From the NCBI GenBank assembly GCA_000751555.1, contig CCEZ01000014.1, positions 22,302-46,301 of the forward strand: DNA of 24,000 bases, read 5' to 3'. Shown here piece by piece: positions 1,238-7,695 of the stretch. The DNA is from Anaerosalibacter massiliensis. Its GTDB lineage: Bacteria; Bacillota; Clostridia; Tissierellales; Sporanaerobacteraceae. How positions within the stretch are numbered: the first letter of the stretch is position 1; each line of letters starts with the position of its first letter. The position numbers and the translations under genes were made by a program. The notes under the pieces are model-generated. The model worked only from the letters and a program-made list of their open reading frames with translations, did not search any database and was not told where the DNA came from.

Positions 1238-2407
1238 ATGAGAATTAATAACAACATGATGGCAATGAATGCCAACAGACAATTAGGTATCAACAATACA
1301 GGAACAGCTAAATCCTTAGAAAAATTATCATCAGGATTTAGAATCAACAGAGCAGGAGACGACGCAGCAGGACTAGCAATATCAGAAAAAATGAGAGGTC
1401 AAATCAGAGGATTAAACATGGCTTCCAAAAATGCTCAAGATGGTATTTCATTAATCCAAACTGCAGAAGGTGCATTAGATGAAACTCATGCAATCCTTCA
1501 AAGAATGAGAGAGTTAGCAGTTCAATCAGCTAATGATACAAATGTTGAAGTAGATAGAGGTGAAATTCAAAAGGAAATAGATCAATTATCAGCAGAACTT
1601 ACAAGAATAGCTGATACTACAGAATTCAATACTCAAAACTTATTAGGTGGAGATTTTAGTGGTAAGTTCCATGTTGGAGCTAATTCAGGACAAAACGTTG
1701 ATTTAGCTATTGGTAATATGAGTGCTGAAGCGTTAAATGTTCAAGGAGTAGTATATGATGCAACAGATGTTGAAGATGTTGAAGGTCTTCAAGTTAGAAG
1801 TAAAACTGGTGATGCCCTAGAAATTGAGTATAAAGCTCTAGGAGGAGATGCAGAAATAAAAGAAACAACAGCAGAGTTTGATGCTGAGAGTGGTAAGATA
1901 ACTATTACTCTTGCACAAGATGATGCTAATCAAGGTACTGCAACTCATGCTGATATAAAGGCTGCATTGGAATCTGTAGCTGAAAAAGCTGGAATATCAA
2001 TTTCCACAACAGATGATTTTGCAAAAGATACTGTAGCTACAGCAGCTCCAGCAGCAACAACAGTAAATGTAGCTGATGTAGACGAAGAAGCTAGTAAAAA
2101 AGTAGGAATTAACGTTTCTAGTCAAGAAGCGGCAGATGCAGCAATAACTACTATAAATAAAGCAGTTGAAACTGTTTCATCTGAAAGATCTAAACTTGGT
2201 GCTATGCAAAATAGATTAGAACATACTATCAAGAACTTAGACAATGCTTCTGAAAATCTACAAGCAGCAGAATCAAGAATTAGAGACGTAGACATGGCAA
2301 GAGAAATGATGGAATTTACAAAACAAAACATCTTACAACAAGCTTCAACAGCTATGTTGGCTCAAGCAAATAGCCTTCCTCAAGGAGTATTACAACTTTT
2401 AAGATAG
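1238..2407 (+). CDS. fliC: flagellin (FliC/Hag family), contiguous unspliced reading frame of 389 aa
   Basis: Conserved flagellin N-terminus (MRINNNMMAMNANRQLGINN...LSSGFRINRAGDDAAGLAISEKMRGQIRGL) and C-terminus (SKLGAMQNRLEHTIKNLDNASENLQAAESRIRDVDMAREMMEFTKQNILQQASTAMLAQAN...LLR). Strong SD. The last 15 codons (2363-2407) lie inside the predicted intron. Confidence 0.95.
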   Translation: MRINNNMMAMNANRQLGINNTGTAKSLEKLSSGFRINRAGDDAAGLAISEKMRGQIRGLNMASKNAQDGISLIQTAEGALDETHAILQRMRELAVQSANDTNVEVDRGEIQKEIDQLSAELTRIADTTEFNTQNLLGGDFSGKFHVGANSGQNVDLAIGNMSAEALNVQGVVYDATDVEDVEGLQVRSKTGDALEIEYKALGGDAEIKETTAEFDAESGKITITLAQDDANQGTATHADIKAALESVAEKAGISISTTDDFAKDTVATAAPAATTVNVADVDEEASKKVGINVSSQEAADAAITTINKAVETVSSERSKLGAMQNRLEHTIKNLDNASENLQAAESRIRDVDMAREMMEFTKQNILQQASTAMLAQANSLPQGVLQLLR

Positions 2408-2772
2408 TGTGACATTAGAACGTTTTATTTGCCACATAAAGATGAGGAAACTATTTACGGGTCCCTCAAAGAGTAATTTTTGAGAGAAAATTGGGTGAAT
2501 TGCTGGAACTTCCTAAAGCTCTACTTCCTACAACGTAGTTGGAAACAGCAAACGTGAAAGGTTTAGAATAGTAGAGATGAAACAATGGATAATCAGCAGC
2601 CAAGCTCCTGTACTGAAAAGTTGGAGAAGGTTCAACGACTAGGATATACCACCTAAGGTTTTGCTATGGTGATGAAGTCTATAGGAGAAGAGGTCCTCCA
2701 AAGTGCCCAACAGCCACAATATTATGGTTGAAGATATAGTCTGGCATATATTGAAAGATATGTGATGGTCCG
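2363..2772 (+). ncRNA. ORF-less group I intron interrupting the flagellin C-terminal codons
   Basis: Core elements read by eye: P-like AATTGCTGGAA 2498-2508; Q-like AATCAGCAGCC 2591-2601; R-like GTTCAACGACTAG 2630-2642; S-like AAGATATAGTCT 2731-2742. Pairings: P3 TTGGGTG 2491-2497 / CACCTAA 2650-2656; P4 TGCTG 2501-2505 / CAGCA 2594-2598; P6 CTCC 2605-2608 / GGAG 2623-2626; P7 GACTA 2637-2641 / TAGTC 2737-2741; P2 CTCAAA 2465-2470 / TTTGAG 2479-2484; P5-type CTCTACT 2519-2525 / AGTAGAG 2570-2576; P9 2744-2749 / 2758-2763. P1 pairs exon GGCT (2359-2362) plus C2363 with GGGTC (2459-2463), placing U2362 opposite G2460. The last intron base is G2772. Confidence 0.8.
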
Positions 2773-2826: not shown

Positions 2827-2861
2827 AAAATTTAAGCCGAGAATTTCTCGGCTTAAATTTT
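2827..2861. terminator. bidirectional rho-independent terminator
   Basis: Perfect 15-bp stem AAAATTTAAGCCGAG (2827-2841) / CTCGGCTTAAATTTT (2847-2861) with loop AATTT. The A-run and T-run flanks would let it serve flagellin (+) and the convergent ORF 2853-3098 (-). Confidence 0.85.
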
Positions 2862-3098
2862 ACCTTCTTTTTGCTTATCTTTTTTCCCTGTTTGCATTTT
2901 TTTATATATTTTATTCATATATTCTTCACTTTTTTTAAGCCCAAGTTTTGAAGCCTTAGTTCTCAGAGTTGATTCTGTATATCCTAATTTTTTAGCTAAT
3001 TTATTATTATCAGAATTAGGATATTCATTTTTCATGATTTGTTTTTTTTCATTTAAATTATATTTTGAGATGTTACCACCTTCCATATATACAAACAT
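2853..3098 (-). CDS. small hypothetical protein with an HTH-like segment
   Basis: 81-aa ORF containing NKLAKKLGYTESTLRTKASKLGLKK (helix-turn-helix-like) and a lysine-rich tail. No convincing SD at any of the three candidate ATGs. A TATAAT on the reverse strand lies just upstream of the first ATG, so the mRNA could be leaderless. The stop codon sits inside the terminator stem. Confidence 0.4.
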   Translation of the reverse strand: MFVYMEGGNISKYNLNEKKQIMKNEYPNSDNNKLAKKLGYTESTLRTKASKLGLKKSEEYMNKIYKKMQTGKKDKQKEGKI

Positions 3099-3461: not shown

Positions 3462-4622
3462 TTGAAAGAGAAGGCTATAGTGAAATCTATAAATAAAGAA
3501 TCTTTCTTTTGGTTATTTGGTATTTTTATTTTTTTTGGATTATTTATCCATGTTATGGGAGCAGCTAATATGTTTAAAACAATGATGGCCACTGCTCATG
3601 ATTTAATTCTAAATACAGCTTTTTTTATTATGGGAGTTGCTGTGCTTTCTAGTGCTTTTTCATCTATATTATCTGAGTTTGGAATTGTTGCTATTATTAA
3701 TAATATATTAAGTCCTATTATAAAACCTTTGTTCAATCTTCCTGGAGTAGCAAGTCTTGGAATATTGACGACTTATCTTTCTGATAATCCAGCAATTATT
3801 TCTTTAGCACATGAAAAGGATTTCAAGAAGTATTTTAAGAAGTATCAGCTTCCTGCTATTACAAACTTAGGTACATCTTTTGGAATGGGACTTATAGTAT
3901 CAACTTTTATGATGGCCCAAGCTAAAAATGGTGAGAATTTTTTAGCTCCAGTTGTAATAGGAAATATAGGTGCTTTTATAGGAAGTATAGTAAGTGTAAG
4001 ATTGATGCTAAACTATACCAAGGAGATTTACGGTACAGAAGAATATGTGTTTTTTGGTGAAGATAGTTCTTATGATATAACGAAATGTAGGGAAATAAGA
4101 TCAGGAACTACATTACAAAGGTTCCTTGAAGCAATACTTGATGGAGGAAAGGTAGGAGTTGATTTAGGATTATCTGTTATTCCAGGAGTTGTGATTATTT
4201 GTACATTTGTAATGATGTTTACTAATGGTCCATCTGCAAGTGGAATGTATACAGGTTCAGCTTATGAAGGTATAAGAGTACTTCCTTGGATAGGAGAAAA
4301 GTTAAAGTTTATATTATATCCGCTTTTTGGGTTTAAAAATCCTGAATCAATAGCATTTCCAGTTACTTCTTTAGGTTCTGTAGGGGCAGCTCTAGGGCTT
4401 GTAACAAAATTTTTAGCAGAGGGTCTTATTGGTAAAAATGAAATAGCAGTATTTACAGCTATAGGAATGTGTTGGAGCGGATATTTAAGTACTCATGTAG
4501 CAATGATGGATGCATTAGATATGAGGGAATTAACAACTAAGGCCATTATTAGTCATACTATAGGAGGATTATGTGCAGGTATAGTTGCCCATTTCATCTA
4601 TCTTATATATTCTATTATATAA
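3462..4622 (+). CDS. polytopic membrane protein, nucleoside-recognition (Gate) domain-like
   Basis: TTG start 6 nt after AGGAGGGGG. The protein has multiple hydrophobic helices. The segment PLFNLPGVASLGILTTYLSDNPAIISLA resembles Gate/YjiH-SpmA-type proteins. The family call is from memory only. Confidence 0.5.
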   Translation: MKEKAIVKSINKESFFWLFGIFIFFGLFIHVMGAANMFKTMMATAHDLILNTAFFIMGVAVLSSAFSSILSEFGIVAIINNILSPIIKPLFNLPGVASLGILTTYLSDNPAIISLAHEKDFKKYFKKYQLPAITNLGTSFGMGLIVSTFMMAQAKNGENFLAPVVIGNIGAFIGSIVSVRLMLNYTKEIYGTEEYVFFGEDSSYDITKCREIRSGTTLQRFLEAILDGGKVGVDLGLSVIPGVVIICTFVMMFTNGPSASGMYTGSAYEGIRVLPWIGEKLKFILYPLFGFKNPESIAFPVTSLGSVGAALGLVTKFLAEGLIGKNEIAVFTAIGMCWSGYLSTHVAMMDALDMRELTTKAIISHTIGGLCAGIVAHFIYLIYSII

Positions 4623-5040
4623 TAATATGTTTTGAATATTATTAGTTATGTTTTAATATTACAAACAGGAAGTAATACTAGGTTGAATTTTAGCATGGGA
4701 GTTAGAAAGAGCATACGAAAACAATGTTAAATAGTATTAAGCTATTGTAAATTATATTTATAAAATTGTTGGAATATATGTTTATCATATAATAAACATA
4801 TAGAGAAGGATATAAAGGAACAATTAGAAGCTATAAATAATAAGGAAATACTAAATGAACTAGCTAGAAATGCAGTCAAGACTAAATTATTAGAAGAATT
4901 TAAAGAACCATTAGATAAGACATTAGAATAAATTCAGGAATCTTATAGGATTTCATTTTGGATTTTAGGCAGTACTACTTCTAAAAATTGCCTTGTATGT
5001 TTAAATATATTAAGTGGAAAATACATATGAGGTGATAATA

Positions 5041-5202
5041 TTGAAAGAAAAGAAAAATGATAAAAAAAATAATAAGAATTTTTTCAAACAAATGAATTAT
5101 GAAATTGCTGGTGAACATGGCATAATAGATAATGAAGACATGAAAAACAATAGAAAATTAAATAATAAAGATAGGCAAGATCAGAAAGATAATAAAAAAT
5201 AA
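5041..5202 (+). CDS. small highly charged hypothetical protein (53 aa from TTG 5041; the ORF track's longer form starts at 5014)
   Basis: GAGGTG lies 6 nt upstream of TTG 5041, whereas GTG 5014 has no SD. The product is Lys/Asn/Asp-rich with a NYEIAGEHGI motif. A strong terminator follows immediately. Confidence 0.45.
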   Translation: MKEKKNDKKNNKNFFKQMNYEIAGEHGIIDNEDMKNNRKLNNKDRQDQKDNKK

Positions 5203-5206
5203 ATAG

Positions 5207-5241
5207 AACCCTAGTTGCTATAAATTATAGTGACTAGGGTT
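5207..5241 (+). terminator. rho-independent terminator
   Basis: AACCCTAGT (5207-5215) pairs with ACTAGGGTT (5233-5241), with an inner CTATA/TATAG pairing. A T-rich tract (GATTTTATTTT) follows. Confidence 0.7.
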
Positions 5242-5411
5242 AATGATTTTATTTTAATACATTTTTATAAAACTTGTAGGATATTTTATTTTACTATAAT
5301 ATAGGGATATATATTTTCTGTACATAACTTACTTATCATTAGTGAAGTAACATGTAATAGATTTAGAAATTTTACTTATGTATAATTTTATTAGAAAGGG
5401 TTCGTATAACT

Positions 5412-7232
5412 ATGAATAAAAGACAATGTGATTTATTAAAAAAGTTAATAACTCAGAAGAAATATATGCCTATGAAGTATTTTTCTGACATATTAAACAT
5501 ATCAAGGAAAACGGTATCAAATGATATTGATGAAATTGAAAAAATTATTAATCCTATTGGTGCTAAGATAGATAGGAAACAAGGAATAGGCATAAGGATA
5601 TACTATACTCCGTCTCAATTAGATGAATTGAATAATATACTAAACAATATTAAAGTTTCTAACAAAGACAATGATTTAGAATATAGAAGAATACAGATTT
5701 TATTGAACTTACTTATCCCTACTAGTGAATATACTACAATTCAAAAACTTTCAGACGAACATATGGTGAGTAGAACCTCTATTAATAATGACTTAGATGA
5801 AATCCAAAAGATATTAGATATATACAATTTAAGTCTATCAAAAACATTAAAGGGAACAAGAATAGTTGGTAGTGAAATAAATATTAGAAAAGCTTTGGTT
5901 TCTATAGTTCAAGAATATGGAAAGACTAATCCTGATTATATTGTTGAGTATCAGAACATTCGCCATAAAGAACTTAATATTGATGAAATCAATACTATAC
6001 TAAACAAGGAATCTGTTTTCTTTTTTGAAGAATTATTGAATGAATTAGAAAATAAATTGAAACTGGTAATATATGAACCTTATTATACAAATCTGCTAAC
6101 CCATTTAGTAATTATGACAAATAGGATTATTAATGGGAATTATATTGATGATATTTTAGATTTAAATGAATCTGTATTGGTATTGGATGAAGAATTGTAT
6201 AGTAGTGCTATTTATCTAATAAGGGAAATAGAAAAGAAATTTAATATTGAGATTGACAAGCAGGAAATAGTATACATATATAAACACTTAATATCAATAG
6301 GGCTAAGCCATGACAATAAGGATGATAATAATGAAAAGAATATTAAGGAATTTGATTTGCCACCAGCTCATTTTACAGAATATTTAATAGATATTGTATC
6401 ACAAATGTCAAATACTAACTATAGATTAAGGCCTAATTTATACGATAGATTGTTGCTACACATTAAGCCTATGCTAAATAGAATAAAATATAATATTCAG
6501 ATTAAGAACCCTTTGTTAAATGATTTTTTGAGAGAATTTGAAGAAGAGTTTTTTATAATGAAGATTGCTTGCTTTTTAGCTTGCAATAAATTTGGAATAA
6601 ATAAGATAAATGACCATGAGGTATCCTATATTCTTTCTTATTTTATATCTGAAAACGAAAAAATTGTAGAGGCAATGAAAATAAAAATATTGGTTATTTG
6701 TCATAGTGGATATGGTACTAGCCAGTTATTAGCAGCTAGGTTGGAAAAGGCTTTTAATAATATTGAGGTAGTTAATATTGTTGCATCTAAATCAGTAGAT
6801 AGTATTGATTTAGATAAAATAGATTTAATAGTTTCTACTGTAAATTTAGATATAGAACAACCGTATTTAATAGTATCTGCATTTTTAAATGAAATTGACA
6901 AGGAAAATATAAGAAATTATATAGAAATGATACTAGAGAACAAAAGAAAACTTTCCTCAAATAATCCTGTAAAAACAATCTCATTAGAAACTATTAATAG
7001 CTGCAAAGATATGGAAGAATTTAAGAAGTATTTTATTGAAGATAACTTAATCCATATAAAAAATAATACCTATGTATACCTTGTATATAGTGGACAAGAT
7101 TCAGTTAAAAAATATGTATATGAACAGGATAATTCATGGAAGCATATATTTGCTATAAGGTATTCTAACTATGTATATTTATCAGAGGTATTAAGGCAGA
7201 TTGCGGGGGGATGTTTAAATGAGGAAAGATAA
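5412..7232 (+). CDS. PRD-domain transcriptional regulator of the MtlR/LicR/ManR type (two N-terminal HTH domains, two PRDs, an EIIB-like domain)
   Basis: N-terminal winged-HTH segments (ISRKTVSNDIDEIEKI; VSRTSINNDLDEIQKI). PRD-like histidine helices (LLTHLVIMTNRI; LLLHIKPMLNRI). EIIB(Gat)-like KILVICHSGYGTSQLLAARLEKAF with the phosphorylatable Cys. Confidence 0.8.
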   Translation: MNKRQCDLLKKLITQKKYMPMKYFSDILNISRKTVSNDIDEIEKIINPIGAKIDRKQGIGIRIYYTPSQLDELNNILNNIKVSNKDNDLEYRRIQILLNLLIPTSEYTTIQKLSDEHMVSRTSINNDLDEIQKILDIYNLSLSKTLKGTRIVGSEINIRKALVSIVQEYGKTNPDYIVEYQNIRHKELNIDEINTILNKESVFFFEELLNELENKLKLVIYEPYYTNLLTHLVIMTNRIINGNYIDDILDLNESVLVLDEELYSSAIYLIREIEKKFNIEIDKQEIVYIYKHLISIGLSHDNKDDNNEKNIKEFDLPPAHFTEYLIDIVSQMSNTNYRLRPNLYDRLLLHIKPMLNRIKYNIQIKNPLLNDFLREFEEEFFIMKIACFLACNKFGINKINDHEVSYILSYFISENEKIVEAMKIKILVICHSGYGTSQLLAARLEKAFNNIEVVNIVASKSVDSIDLDKIDLIVSTVNLDIEQPYLIVSAFLNEIDKENIRNYIEMILENKRKLSSNNPVKTISLETINSCKDMEEFKKYFIEDNLIHIKNNTYVYLVYSGQDSVKKYVYEQDNSWKHIFAIRYSNYVYLSEVLRQIAGGCLNEER

Positions 7233-7695
7233 TATGGAAGACAAAAATATACTTAGTCTAGATAATATTATTTTAAATAGTAAACTACATTGTAAAGAAG
7301 AAGTTATTGATAAATTATTTGATATTCTAGTAGATTCAGGGGCTGTTTTAGATAAAAAAACGTTTATAGAGGACATATATGAAAGAGAAAGTAGAGGGTT
7401 TACTTTTGCTGGAGATTATTTAGCTATTCCCCATAGCTTTTCTAATTGTGTAGCTTGGCCTCAAATAGCTATTATTAGGACAAATAATGCTTTTGTATGG
7501 GATGAAAATGAAAATTTAGTAAAATTGGTTATTATGCTTGCTATTCCTGAAAGTACTGAGAGGGAAAAAGAATTAGAGATACTAAAAAATATTGTTTATT
7601 CATTAGGAGATGTGAATTTAGTTAAAGATTTATTGGAGGTCAATACAAAGGAAGAATTAATTAAACTTATTTATAGTTATGCTGATAATCAATAG
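7219..7695 (+). CDS. PTS EIIA, type 2 (fructose/mannitol/Ntr family)
   Basis: GDYLAIPHSF active-site His context and typical EIIA-2 length. Overlaps the regulator stop by 14 nt. An alternative start is ATG 7234, behind GAGGAAAG. Confidence 0.75.
   Translation: MRKDNMEDKNILSLDNIILNSKLHCKEEVIDKLFDILVDSGAVLDKKTFIEDIYERESRGFTFAGDYLAIPHSFSNCVAWPQIAIIRTNNAFVWDENENLVKLVIMLAIPESTEREKELEILKNIVYSLGDVNLVKDLLEVNTKEELIKLIYSYADNQ

Follow-up and report, generated by a model that had tools for sequence, protein, structure and literature searches.

A flagellin gene in a 24-kb (24,000-nucleotide) stretch of contig CCEZ01000014.1 from Anaerosalibacter massiliensis, referred to as the window, is interrupted close to its 3' end by a group I intron whose first 45 nucleotides (nt) continue the reading frame of exon 1 into a 14-residue copy of the flagellin C-terminus and a stop codon. 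This copy, the exon mimic, doubles as a strand of the ribozyme's P1 region, and it is under purifying selection at the protein level in more than 100 species. It is probably a dual-coded surrogate terminus that buffers the translation of unspliced mRNA, a fail-safe through which spliced and unspliced messages would both yield full-length flagellin. The mimic had been noticed in an earlier reading of the window's letters (the sequence-only reading); that observation is confirmed here, and the interpretation placed on it is supported.

The gene and its intron are composed of the following parts.

1238-2407, + strand: flagellin open reading frame (ORF), 389 amino acids (aa), ending in AMLAQANSLPQGVLQLLR and a stop (ORF list).
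1238-2362, + strand: flagellin exon 1, 375 codons, the last being GCU (Ala) (ORF list).
2363-2772, + strand: group I intron, 410 nt, from the U2362/C2363 junction to the omega G at 2772.
2363-2407, + strand: surrogate flagellin C-terminus (exon mimic), 14 codons QANSLPQGVLQLLR plus TAG, in the frame of exon 1.
2434-2763, + strand: ribozyme body, P2-P9 (Rfam match).
2773-2817, + strand: genuine 3' exon (exon 2), QANQAPQTVLQLLR plus TAA, 410 nt downstream of the mimic.
2827-2861, + strand: intrinsic terminator, a 16-pair stem followed by a T-run, 10 nt past the exon-2 stop.

The group I intron RF00028 was the sole Rfam family detected across the window; its match at 2434-2763 is full length (model positions 1-253; 95.4 bits, E 9.5e-24, gathering score 50) and includes the conserved catalytic core P3-P9. 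The 5' splice site carries a U·G wobble, U2362·G2460 in P1 of the minimum-energy fold, and the last intron nucleotide, G2772, is a G in every homologue listed. Insertion has taken place between the Ala and Gln codons of a conserved flagellin motif (AMLA followed by QANQxPQxVLQLLR). Ligation of the exons joins AMLA to QANQAPQTVLQLLR and restores an uninterrupted gene equivalent to intron-less flagellin paralogues ending in AMLAQANQQPQGVLQLLR, whereas the unspliced product is predicted to end in AQANSLPQGVLQLLR. The predicted C-terminal tryptic peptides are QNILQQASTAMLAQANSLPQGVLQLLR from the mimic and QNILQQASTAMLAQANQAPQTVLQLLR from spliced mRNA. Both Flagellin_N and Flagellin_C (Pfam) are recorded for the called product of the window ORF. 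The 410-nt intron contains no + strand ORF besides the mimic and no integrase or endonuclease gene, and within the window no terminator-like site follows the mimic stop; the terminator sits after exon 2. The intron presumably splices in its source organism.

In the sequence-only reading, the first 45 nt of the intron (2363-2407) mimicked the flagellin terminus in the frame of exon 1, and the genuine exon lay exactly 410 nt further on (2773-2817); both placements hold against the window sequence. Its comparison of the two segments is likewise reproduced: the peptides differ at three residues (S/Q, L/A, and G/T), the 45-mers differ at 13 nt positions by count, and an Asn codon and two Leu codons differ synonymously only. 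The stop codons also differ, TAG in the mimic and TAA in exon 2.

Homologous introns were collected in a genome scan, with one genome per species, for the pattern AGATATAGTC-N(15-45)-CARGCNAAYNNNNNNCCNCA, which represents the intron core and the start of the 3' exon. The pattern is silent on the 5' end of the intron, so that the mimic forms no part of it. It does fix exon-2 codons 1-3 and 6-7 (Q-A-N and P-Q), and for this reason exon-2 conservation is meaningful, and exon 2 a fair comparator, for codons 8-14 only. At least 120 loci were recovered across Bacillota, a minimum rather than a full count. Nearly all of them consist of a group I core followed by a flagellin 3' exon. Among the loci listed, the hosts comprise Bacillaceae, Planococcaceae, Sporosarcina, Exiguobacterium, Brevibacillus, and Paenibacillus as well as Clostridium, Tissierella, Caloranaerobacter, Fusibacter, Peptostreptococcaceae, Acetivibrionales, and an Erysipelothrix metagenome-assembled genome (MAG).

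Conservation of the mimic in homologous introns had been named in the sequence-only reading as a test of its proposal, and an in-frame 14-codon mimic with a stop is indeed present at 104 of the 116 loci that have enough upstream DNA among the matches listed. The 104 loci share a common layout, in which exon 1 ends in AUGYURGCU and is followed by a 14-codon flagellin-like tail with its stop, the ribozyme, and the G-CARGCNAAY junction; each side has a single conserved splice site (GCU/C at the 5' end, G/CARGC at the 3' end), with no alternative sites across these loci. A T occupies position -1 of the 5' splice site in all homologues examined. At 103 unique loci, from Bacillales, Clostridia, and the Erysipelothrix MAG, the mimic never departs from 14 codons and a stop, and exon 2 keeps its frame and stops at codon 15 in 103/103. 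The closest listed relatives, L077 (Clostridium sp. Cult2) and L036 (UBA4916), have mimic and exon-2 peptides identical to those of the window. Thermophilic carriers are represented by Anoxybacillus and Paranoxybacillus (L058 and L005), which combine this intron with a second one upstream. The intron family is far wider than the thermophilic bacilli, extending over more than 100 species and including Clostridia.

The substitution pattern of the mimic is that of a translated sequence. Ratios of nonsynonymous to synonymous differences (pN/pS) were obtained from Nei-Gojobori counts over 51 disjoint nearest-neighbour pairs. In the frame of exon 1, pN/pS is 0.199 for the whole mimic, 0.115 for codons 6-14, and 0.095 for codons 8-14, compared with 0.150 for exon-2 codons 8-14 and 0.146 for the last 14 codons of exon 1, whereas the same mimic nucleotides read in the other two frames give values of 1.1-7.4. 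The picture is unchanged in the 39 pairs with at most 15% divergence of the intron body. Synonymous turnover in codons 8-14, which lie in the loop and have no conserved pairing, is high (pS about 0.5). Residues 10, 12, and 13 of the mimic are Leu at 103/103 loci with six codons in use at each position, and residue 9 is Val at 102/103 with four codons in use. Among the mimics of the window, L077, and L036, 8 nt differences over 42 nt produce no amino-acid change; they include a switch between the Ser codon families AGC and TCA, accompanied by compensating changes in the pairing strand. Purifying selection at the protein level acts on the mimic across more than 100 species, and from this pattern the mimic would be expected to be translated in vivo.

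The same nucleotides serve the RNA. The elements involved are listed below in the order in which they occur.

2359-2363, + strand: 5' strand of the P1 core, exon GGCU plus intron C1 (minimum-energy fold).
2368-2382, + strand: 5' strand of the P1 extension, AAAUAG..UUCCUCA, which corresponds to mimic codons 2-7 (fold and covariation).
2409-2441, + strand: 33-nt insertion in the P1 loop, without counterpart in L077 and L036 (alignment).
2443-2456, + strand: 3' strand of the P1 extension, UGAGGAA.CUAUUU (fold and relatives).
2459-2463, + strand: internal guide sequence GGGUC, the 3' strand of the P1 core (minimum-energy fold).

In the minimum-energy fold, the P1 core consists of G2359-C2463, G2360·U2462, C2361-G2461, U2362·G2460, and C2363-G2459. 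The sequence-only reading had proposed a P1 extension from an isolated pair 2366/2458 and two helices; the isolated pair is absent from the fold, and both helices are recovered, AAAUAG at 2368-2373 with CUAUUU at 2451-2456 and UUCCUCA at 2376-2382 with UGAGGAA at 2443-2449. The first helix shows a compensatory change, AAAUAG/CUAUUU in the window versus AAAUUC/GAAUUU in L077 and L036. Across the family, mimic nt 6-11 and beyond pair with the segment directly after the stop, which the pairing sometimes overlaps; examples of the resulting duplexes are AAUCAAA/UUUGAUU, CACAACA/UGUUGUG, CAAUAG/CUAUUG, CAAAUAAUC/GGUUAUUUG, and UUUCCA/UGGAAA. The guide sequence occurs as GGGCG or GGGUC and lies 6-12 nt past the mimic stop at most loci. 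In the window this distance is 51 nt, and relative to its relatives the window has the 33-nt loop insertion and a longer P1 extension.

Covariation, the second kind of evidence on which the proposal was to be judged, bears the extension out. In an alignment of 30 sequences, all six extension pairs show changes on both sides, and a column test gives a covariation score of 0.322 versus 0.122 for shuffles, with 0/500 shuffles reaching the observed score and slid controls at or below 0.071; the P1 core is 100% paired, and the U·G is present in 30/30 sequences. A test that does not depend on alignment, based on 61 distinct 5' strands with one representative each, agrees: cognate duplexes average -7.57 kcal/mol versus -4.09 kcal/mol for non-cognate ones, and 0/5000 permutations reach the cognate value (z = -13.8). 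Within the mimic, codons 2-5 (in the window, 2-7) double as the 5' strand of the P1 extension, and in the family the loop of P1 takes in codons 6-14 and the stop. Pairing in the extension explains why the mimic varies in its amino acids at positions 2-5.

A further element of the sequence-only reading fared less well. There, the first 8 nt shared by mimic and exon 2 would have allowed the 3' exon to replace the intron copy on the same guide strand in a P10-like exchange. In the window, the guide pairs with exon 2 at -1.8 kcal/mol versus -6.0 for the mimic; the family means are -2.4 for guide and exon 2, -1.9 for guide and shuffled exon 2, and -6.0 for guide and mimic. The shared prefix is typically 3 nt long and reaches 8 nt at only 11 of 92 loci. 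With pairing this weak, and near that of shuffled sequence, the exchange is no feature of the family, and it was dropped from the proposed mechanism.

Codon choice separates the two termini. Measured against flagellin exon 1 in Bacillales, codon adaptation is 0.746 for exon 2 and 0.520 for the mimic, with exon 2 higher at 80/88 loci (p 2.5e-15); the direction is the same in Clostridia. The final Arg is encoded by AGA, AGG, or CGG in most mimics and by CGT in most exon 2s. Exon 2, unlike the mimic, uses the preferred codons of the gene; splicing is therefore probably the main route, and the bias suggests that most flagellin is made from spliced mRNA. At residues 8 and 14, which vary between hosts, the mimic usually carries the same amino acid as exon 2 of its own locus, and often reaches it through a different codon (TCG or TCC versus AGC for Ser, GGA versus GGT for Gly, and GCA versus GCT for Ala). 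This correspondence has the appearance of selection for the terminus of the particular host, perhaps alongside some gene conversion.

The data fit a simple model of how the gene could tolerate its intron. The 45 nt beyond the 5' splice site extend the frame of exon 1 through the 14-residue terminus copy to a stop, so a ribosome that crosses the splice site before splicing would halt at the mimic stop and release a full-length, near-normal flagellin. Without the mimic, an unspliced message would be read into a flagellin with an incomplete D0 domain. After ribosomes have left the region, P1 would be able to form, splicing would follow, and the canonical terminus would be encoded. Retention of the intron, or translation that outruns splicing, would in this way be made phenotypically silent. 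The extreme C-terminus of flagellin is part of the D0 helix and is needed for polymerisation and chaperone binding. A flagellin lacking 14 residues is plausibly useless or harmful, which would account for selection on the mimic. The mimic-ended product would be expected to assemble into filaments. For solved flagellin structures, the five residue-level alignments shown all end at AQANQQPQ.

Other explanations of the pattern were weighed against this one. The intron might act as a switch, for instance a temperature-dependent one, that yields regulated isoforms, the mimic terminus being distinct in assembly or in FliS/FliW binding; functionally distinct isoforms had also been raised in the sequence-only reading. 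The mimic does differ systematically from exon 2 within residues 2-5 (at position 2 it has Ser where exon 2 has Ala, and at position 5 Met or Leu where exon 2 has Gln), and temperature-dependent splicing of flagellin introns is cited in a passage of PMC4853749. However, the systematic differences are confined to P1-extension codons that covary with their partner strand, and RNA constraint explains them; no residue marks a consistent isoform, position 5 alone taking at least eight different ones, and the agreement with host exon 2 at positions 8 and 14 speaks for equivalence rather than divergence. A regulated switch is on this evidence unlikely. The pairing constraint on codons 2-5 might instead mean that the mimic is an RNA-only relic, left over from a duplication at insertion and kept solely for the P1 extension and loop, the more so as bacterial group I introns often have an in-frame stop just past their 5' end, a feature believed to aid folding (in the part of PMC3984707 concerned with such stops). 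Such a relic would hardly show a pN/pS of 0.095 in its unpaired codons 8-14 or an invariant length of 14 codons, and at L060 (Cerasibacillus MAG) the ribozyme persists without this loop content. There, the mimic is replaced by QFEQVA and a stop, with a P1 extension UGAACAG/CUGUUCA, a 76.7-bit ribozyme, and exon 2 intact; the ribozyme does not need the loop content, because both it and the extension are kept at L060 without a mimic. We regard a purely structural role as quite improbable.

Coding-like conservation could also be an artefact if the mimic were repeatedly overwritten by gene conversion from exon 2 or from flagellin paralogues, as the usual identity of residues 8 and 14 to those of the locus's own exon 2 and the sharing of some minority codons (TCA/TCA, CAG/CAG, and CAA/CAA) would allow. 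Third-position identity of the mimic to its own exon 2 is 0.454, however, barely above the 0.422 to the exon 2 of other loci and below the 0.510 between mimics; the codon preferences of the two differ (AGA/AGG versus CGT, adaptation 0.52 versus 0.75), and matching residues often use codons that are not one-step interconvertible, such as TCG and AGC. On third-position identity and codon preference, gene conversion was largely rejected as the source of the coding-like pattern, of which it is a very improbable cause; judged by these comparisons, the mimic is a separately evolving lineage and not simply overwritten by exon 2. The least probable reading, to which we give hardly any credence, is that the intron is dead, with the mimic as the only real C-terminus and the ribozyme and "exon 2" a remnant in the 3' untranslated region. 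Gene callers do annotate the 389-aa mimic-ended ORF, and orphan fragments of intron and exon 2 exist. L110 (Lentibacillus populi) combines a degraded downstream ribozyme, scoring 17.9 bits, with an intact mimic at the end of its reading frame. L081 (Heyndrickxia sporothermodurans; + strand, 3764-5512) has a long flagellin paralogue that contains a large insert in its centre and terminates in AMLA-QSQQASQGVLQLLR and a stop, a mimic-like terminus (Ser2, Gln3, Ser6, and AGA for Arg) with no intron after it; this may be a mimic that became fixed as the real terminus after intron deletion. Together, L110 and L081 hint, suggestively only, that a mimic can serve as sole terminus. Against a dead intron stand the full-length ribozyme of the window and most loci, the invariant U·G pair and terminal G, the terminator placed after exon 2, and exon 2 itself, which keeps its frame and stop throughout, has a pN/pS of 0.15, and shows the best codon usage.

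Several observations count against the fail-safe reading or temper it. The production of either terminus is read from the pattern of selection, and its assembly is presumed. The poor codon adaptation of the mimic indicates either that it is not the main translated terminus or that it is under other constraints, and those minority residues encoded by the same codon in mimic and exon 2 may reflect occasional gene conversion. Natural loss of the mimic has occurred at L060, and at L022 (Oceanobacillus arenosus) two nonsense codons interrupt it (A-stop-SQQMP-stop-GVLQLLQ-stop). An intron with a similar core that lies 4 nt upstream (AUGCU/A GCA CAG) at L004 (Desulfovirgula MAG) and L088 (Thermoanaerobacteraceae MAG) has in-frame tails of EVLAA and DEMAA before the stop, and no mimic. 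Likewise, the second homologous group I intron, carried by about 35 Bacillales loci some 80 nt upstream at RIRDVD/MAKEMM, reads only YALAA and a stop in frame. Because the second and the 4-nt-shifted introns have no mimic, flagellin genes evidently tolerate unbuffered introns, which tempers any claim that the buffer is essential.

The second intron is found, among others, at L005, L016, L020, L043, L044, L056, and L058; in frame, its 3' end gives GEDIVWSF, since the GAAGATATAGTCTGG core is common to both introns, and at L039 (Bacillaceae bacterium C204, in reverse-complement orientation) it lies about 1057 nt before exon 3. The window gene is without it. Past the mimic stop, the P1 loops of L039 and L110 contain inserted ORFs of about 93 and 116 aa, that of L110 at L110:5951-6298 on the minus strand. 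At least one of them has its own Shine-Dalgarno sequence; the two have no Pfam match and no mutual similarity.

Ends supplied from within an inserted element, and stops placed just inside an intron, are known from other systems. The T4 td intron is an example of an in-frame stop just inside a phage group I intron. Phages and islands that integrate in tRNA, tmRNA, or protein genes bring a replacement 3' gene end, and in the Allomyces mitochondrial atp6 gene a C-terminal duplication lies next to a mobile endonuclease ORF. As in integrating elements, the edge of the flagellin intron provides an in-frame substitute end and the original end lies downstream as a direct repeat; unlike in those DNA elements, where the displaced end is unused, flagellin exon 2 would still be used after splicing, and both ends are under selection. 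Like the in-frame stops of bacterial and phage introns, the mimic stop ends translation by the exon-1 ribosome soon after the 5' splice site, mostly 6-12 nt before the guide. Where those introns append an arbitrary tail and give a truncated product, however, the flagellin tail is a selected 14-residue copy that would give a full-length one. A passage in PMC3984707 sets out the general idea that a stop codon placed in frame close to the 5' end of a bacterial group I intron prevents ribosomes from entering the ribozyme, and the position of the mimic stop just before the guide strand fits it.

Group I introns in flagellin genes are already known. Those of thermophilic Bacillus and Geobacillus (Hayakawa & Ishizuka 2009, 2012), for which self-splicing has been reported, are cited in passages of PMC3984707 and PMC4853749, and the window intron is likewise a group I intron of a Bacillota flagellin gene, lying in the conserved region that encodes the C-terminus. 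Those passages of the citing papers make no mention of an in-frame copy. No in-frame exon copy is described in the full-text literature searched, where the two Hayakawa & Ishizuka papers are represented through citing papers only, and as far as that literature goes the mimic is a new element. IStrons such as CdISt1 are mentioned in a passage of PMC4853749 as alternatively splicing bacterial introns. The flagellin introns share with them and with the Clostridium tetani group II intron the capacity of a bacterial self-splicing intron to give more than one protein product per gene. In those systems, alternative splice sites diversify the products, whereas here there is one 5' and one 3' site, the alternative lies between spliced and unspliced mRNA, and the two flagellins are near-identical. 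In none of the concepts compared do a working ribozyme, a genuine exon still in use, and a surrogate exon kept by selection within the intron occur together. It seems reasonably likely that these introns form a widespread bacterial group I lineage whose 5' module unites the P1 extension and loop with a translated, selected replica of the exon and keeps the insertion phenotypically silent with or without splicing.

Elsewhere in the window, GCCGATAT occurs at 1112-1119, about 120 nt upstream of the flagellin start codon, and fits the sigma-D type -10 element usual in flagellin promoters; a sigma-70 scan found nothing convincing near this site. An 81-aa lysine-rich ORF at 2853-3098 on the - strand is convergent with the flagellin gene; it is gene-called in public assemblies and has no Pfam match. 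Orphan 3' intron fragments with exon-2-like remnants and no flagellin exon 1 were seen at L007, L033, L052, L074, L075, and L112, some of the remnants having a mutated or internal stop. At L112 (Brevibacillus MAG), about 1.9 kb separates the fragment from an intron-less flagellin gene upstream, and just downstream of the fragment is a c-di-GMP-I riboswitch (69.3 bits; 7385-7480, + strand).

One consequence is practical. Public gene calls (NCBI GCA_024623155.1 and Logan assemblies; L121-L123) annotate the mimic-ended 389-aa ORF as flagellin, and because annotation takes this ORF, the intron and the genuine terminus are invisible in protein databases. Gene callers report a normal full-length flagellin, which amounts to an annotation blind spot.

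More generally, bacterial protein-coding genes seldom contain group I introns, a scarcity supposedly due to ribosomes that enter the intron before it folds. The family described here is an apparently successful workaround in a gene that ranks among the most heavily translated of the cell, in which the ribosome would complete a correct protein from the intron itself. It offers a clear natural example of protein and RNA-helix selection acting on a single sequence, and simple alleles would allow the conflict between translation and splicing to be studied in amenable hosts, among them Priestia megaterium, Metabacillus, Exiguobacterium, and Clostridium tyrobutyricum. If the fail-safe reading is true, competition between translation and splicing would be built into the gene, because a ribosome on the mimic must occlude P1, and the mimic would represent a previously undescribed route by which a selfish intron can persist in a highly expressed gene under coupled transcription and translation.

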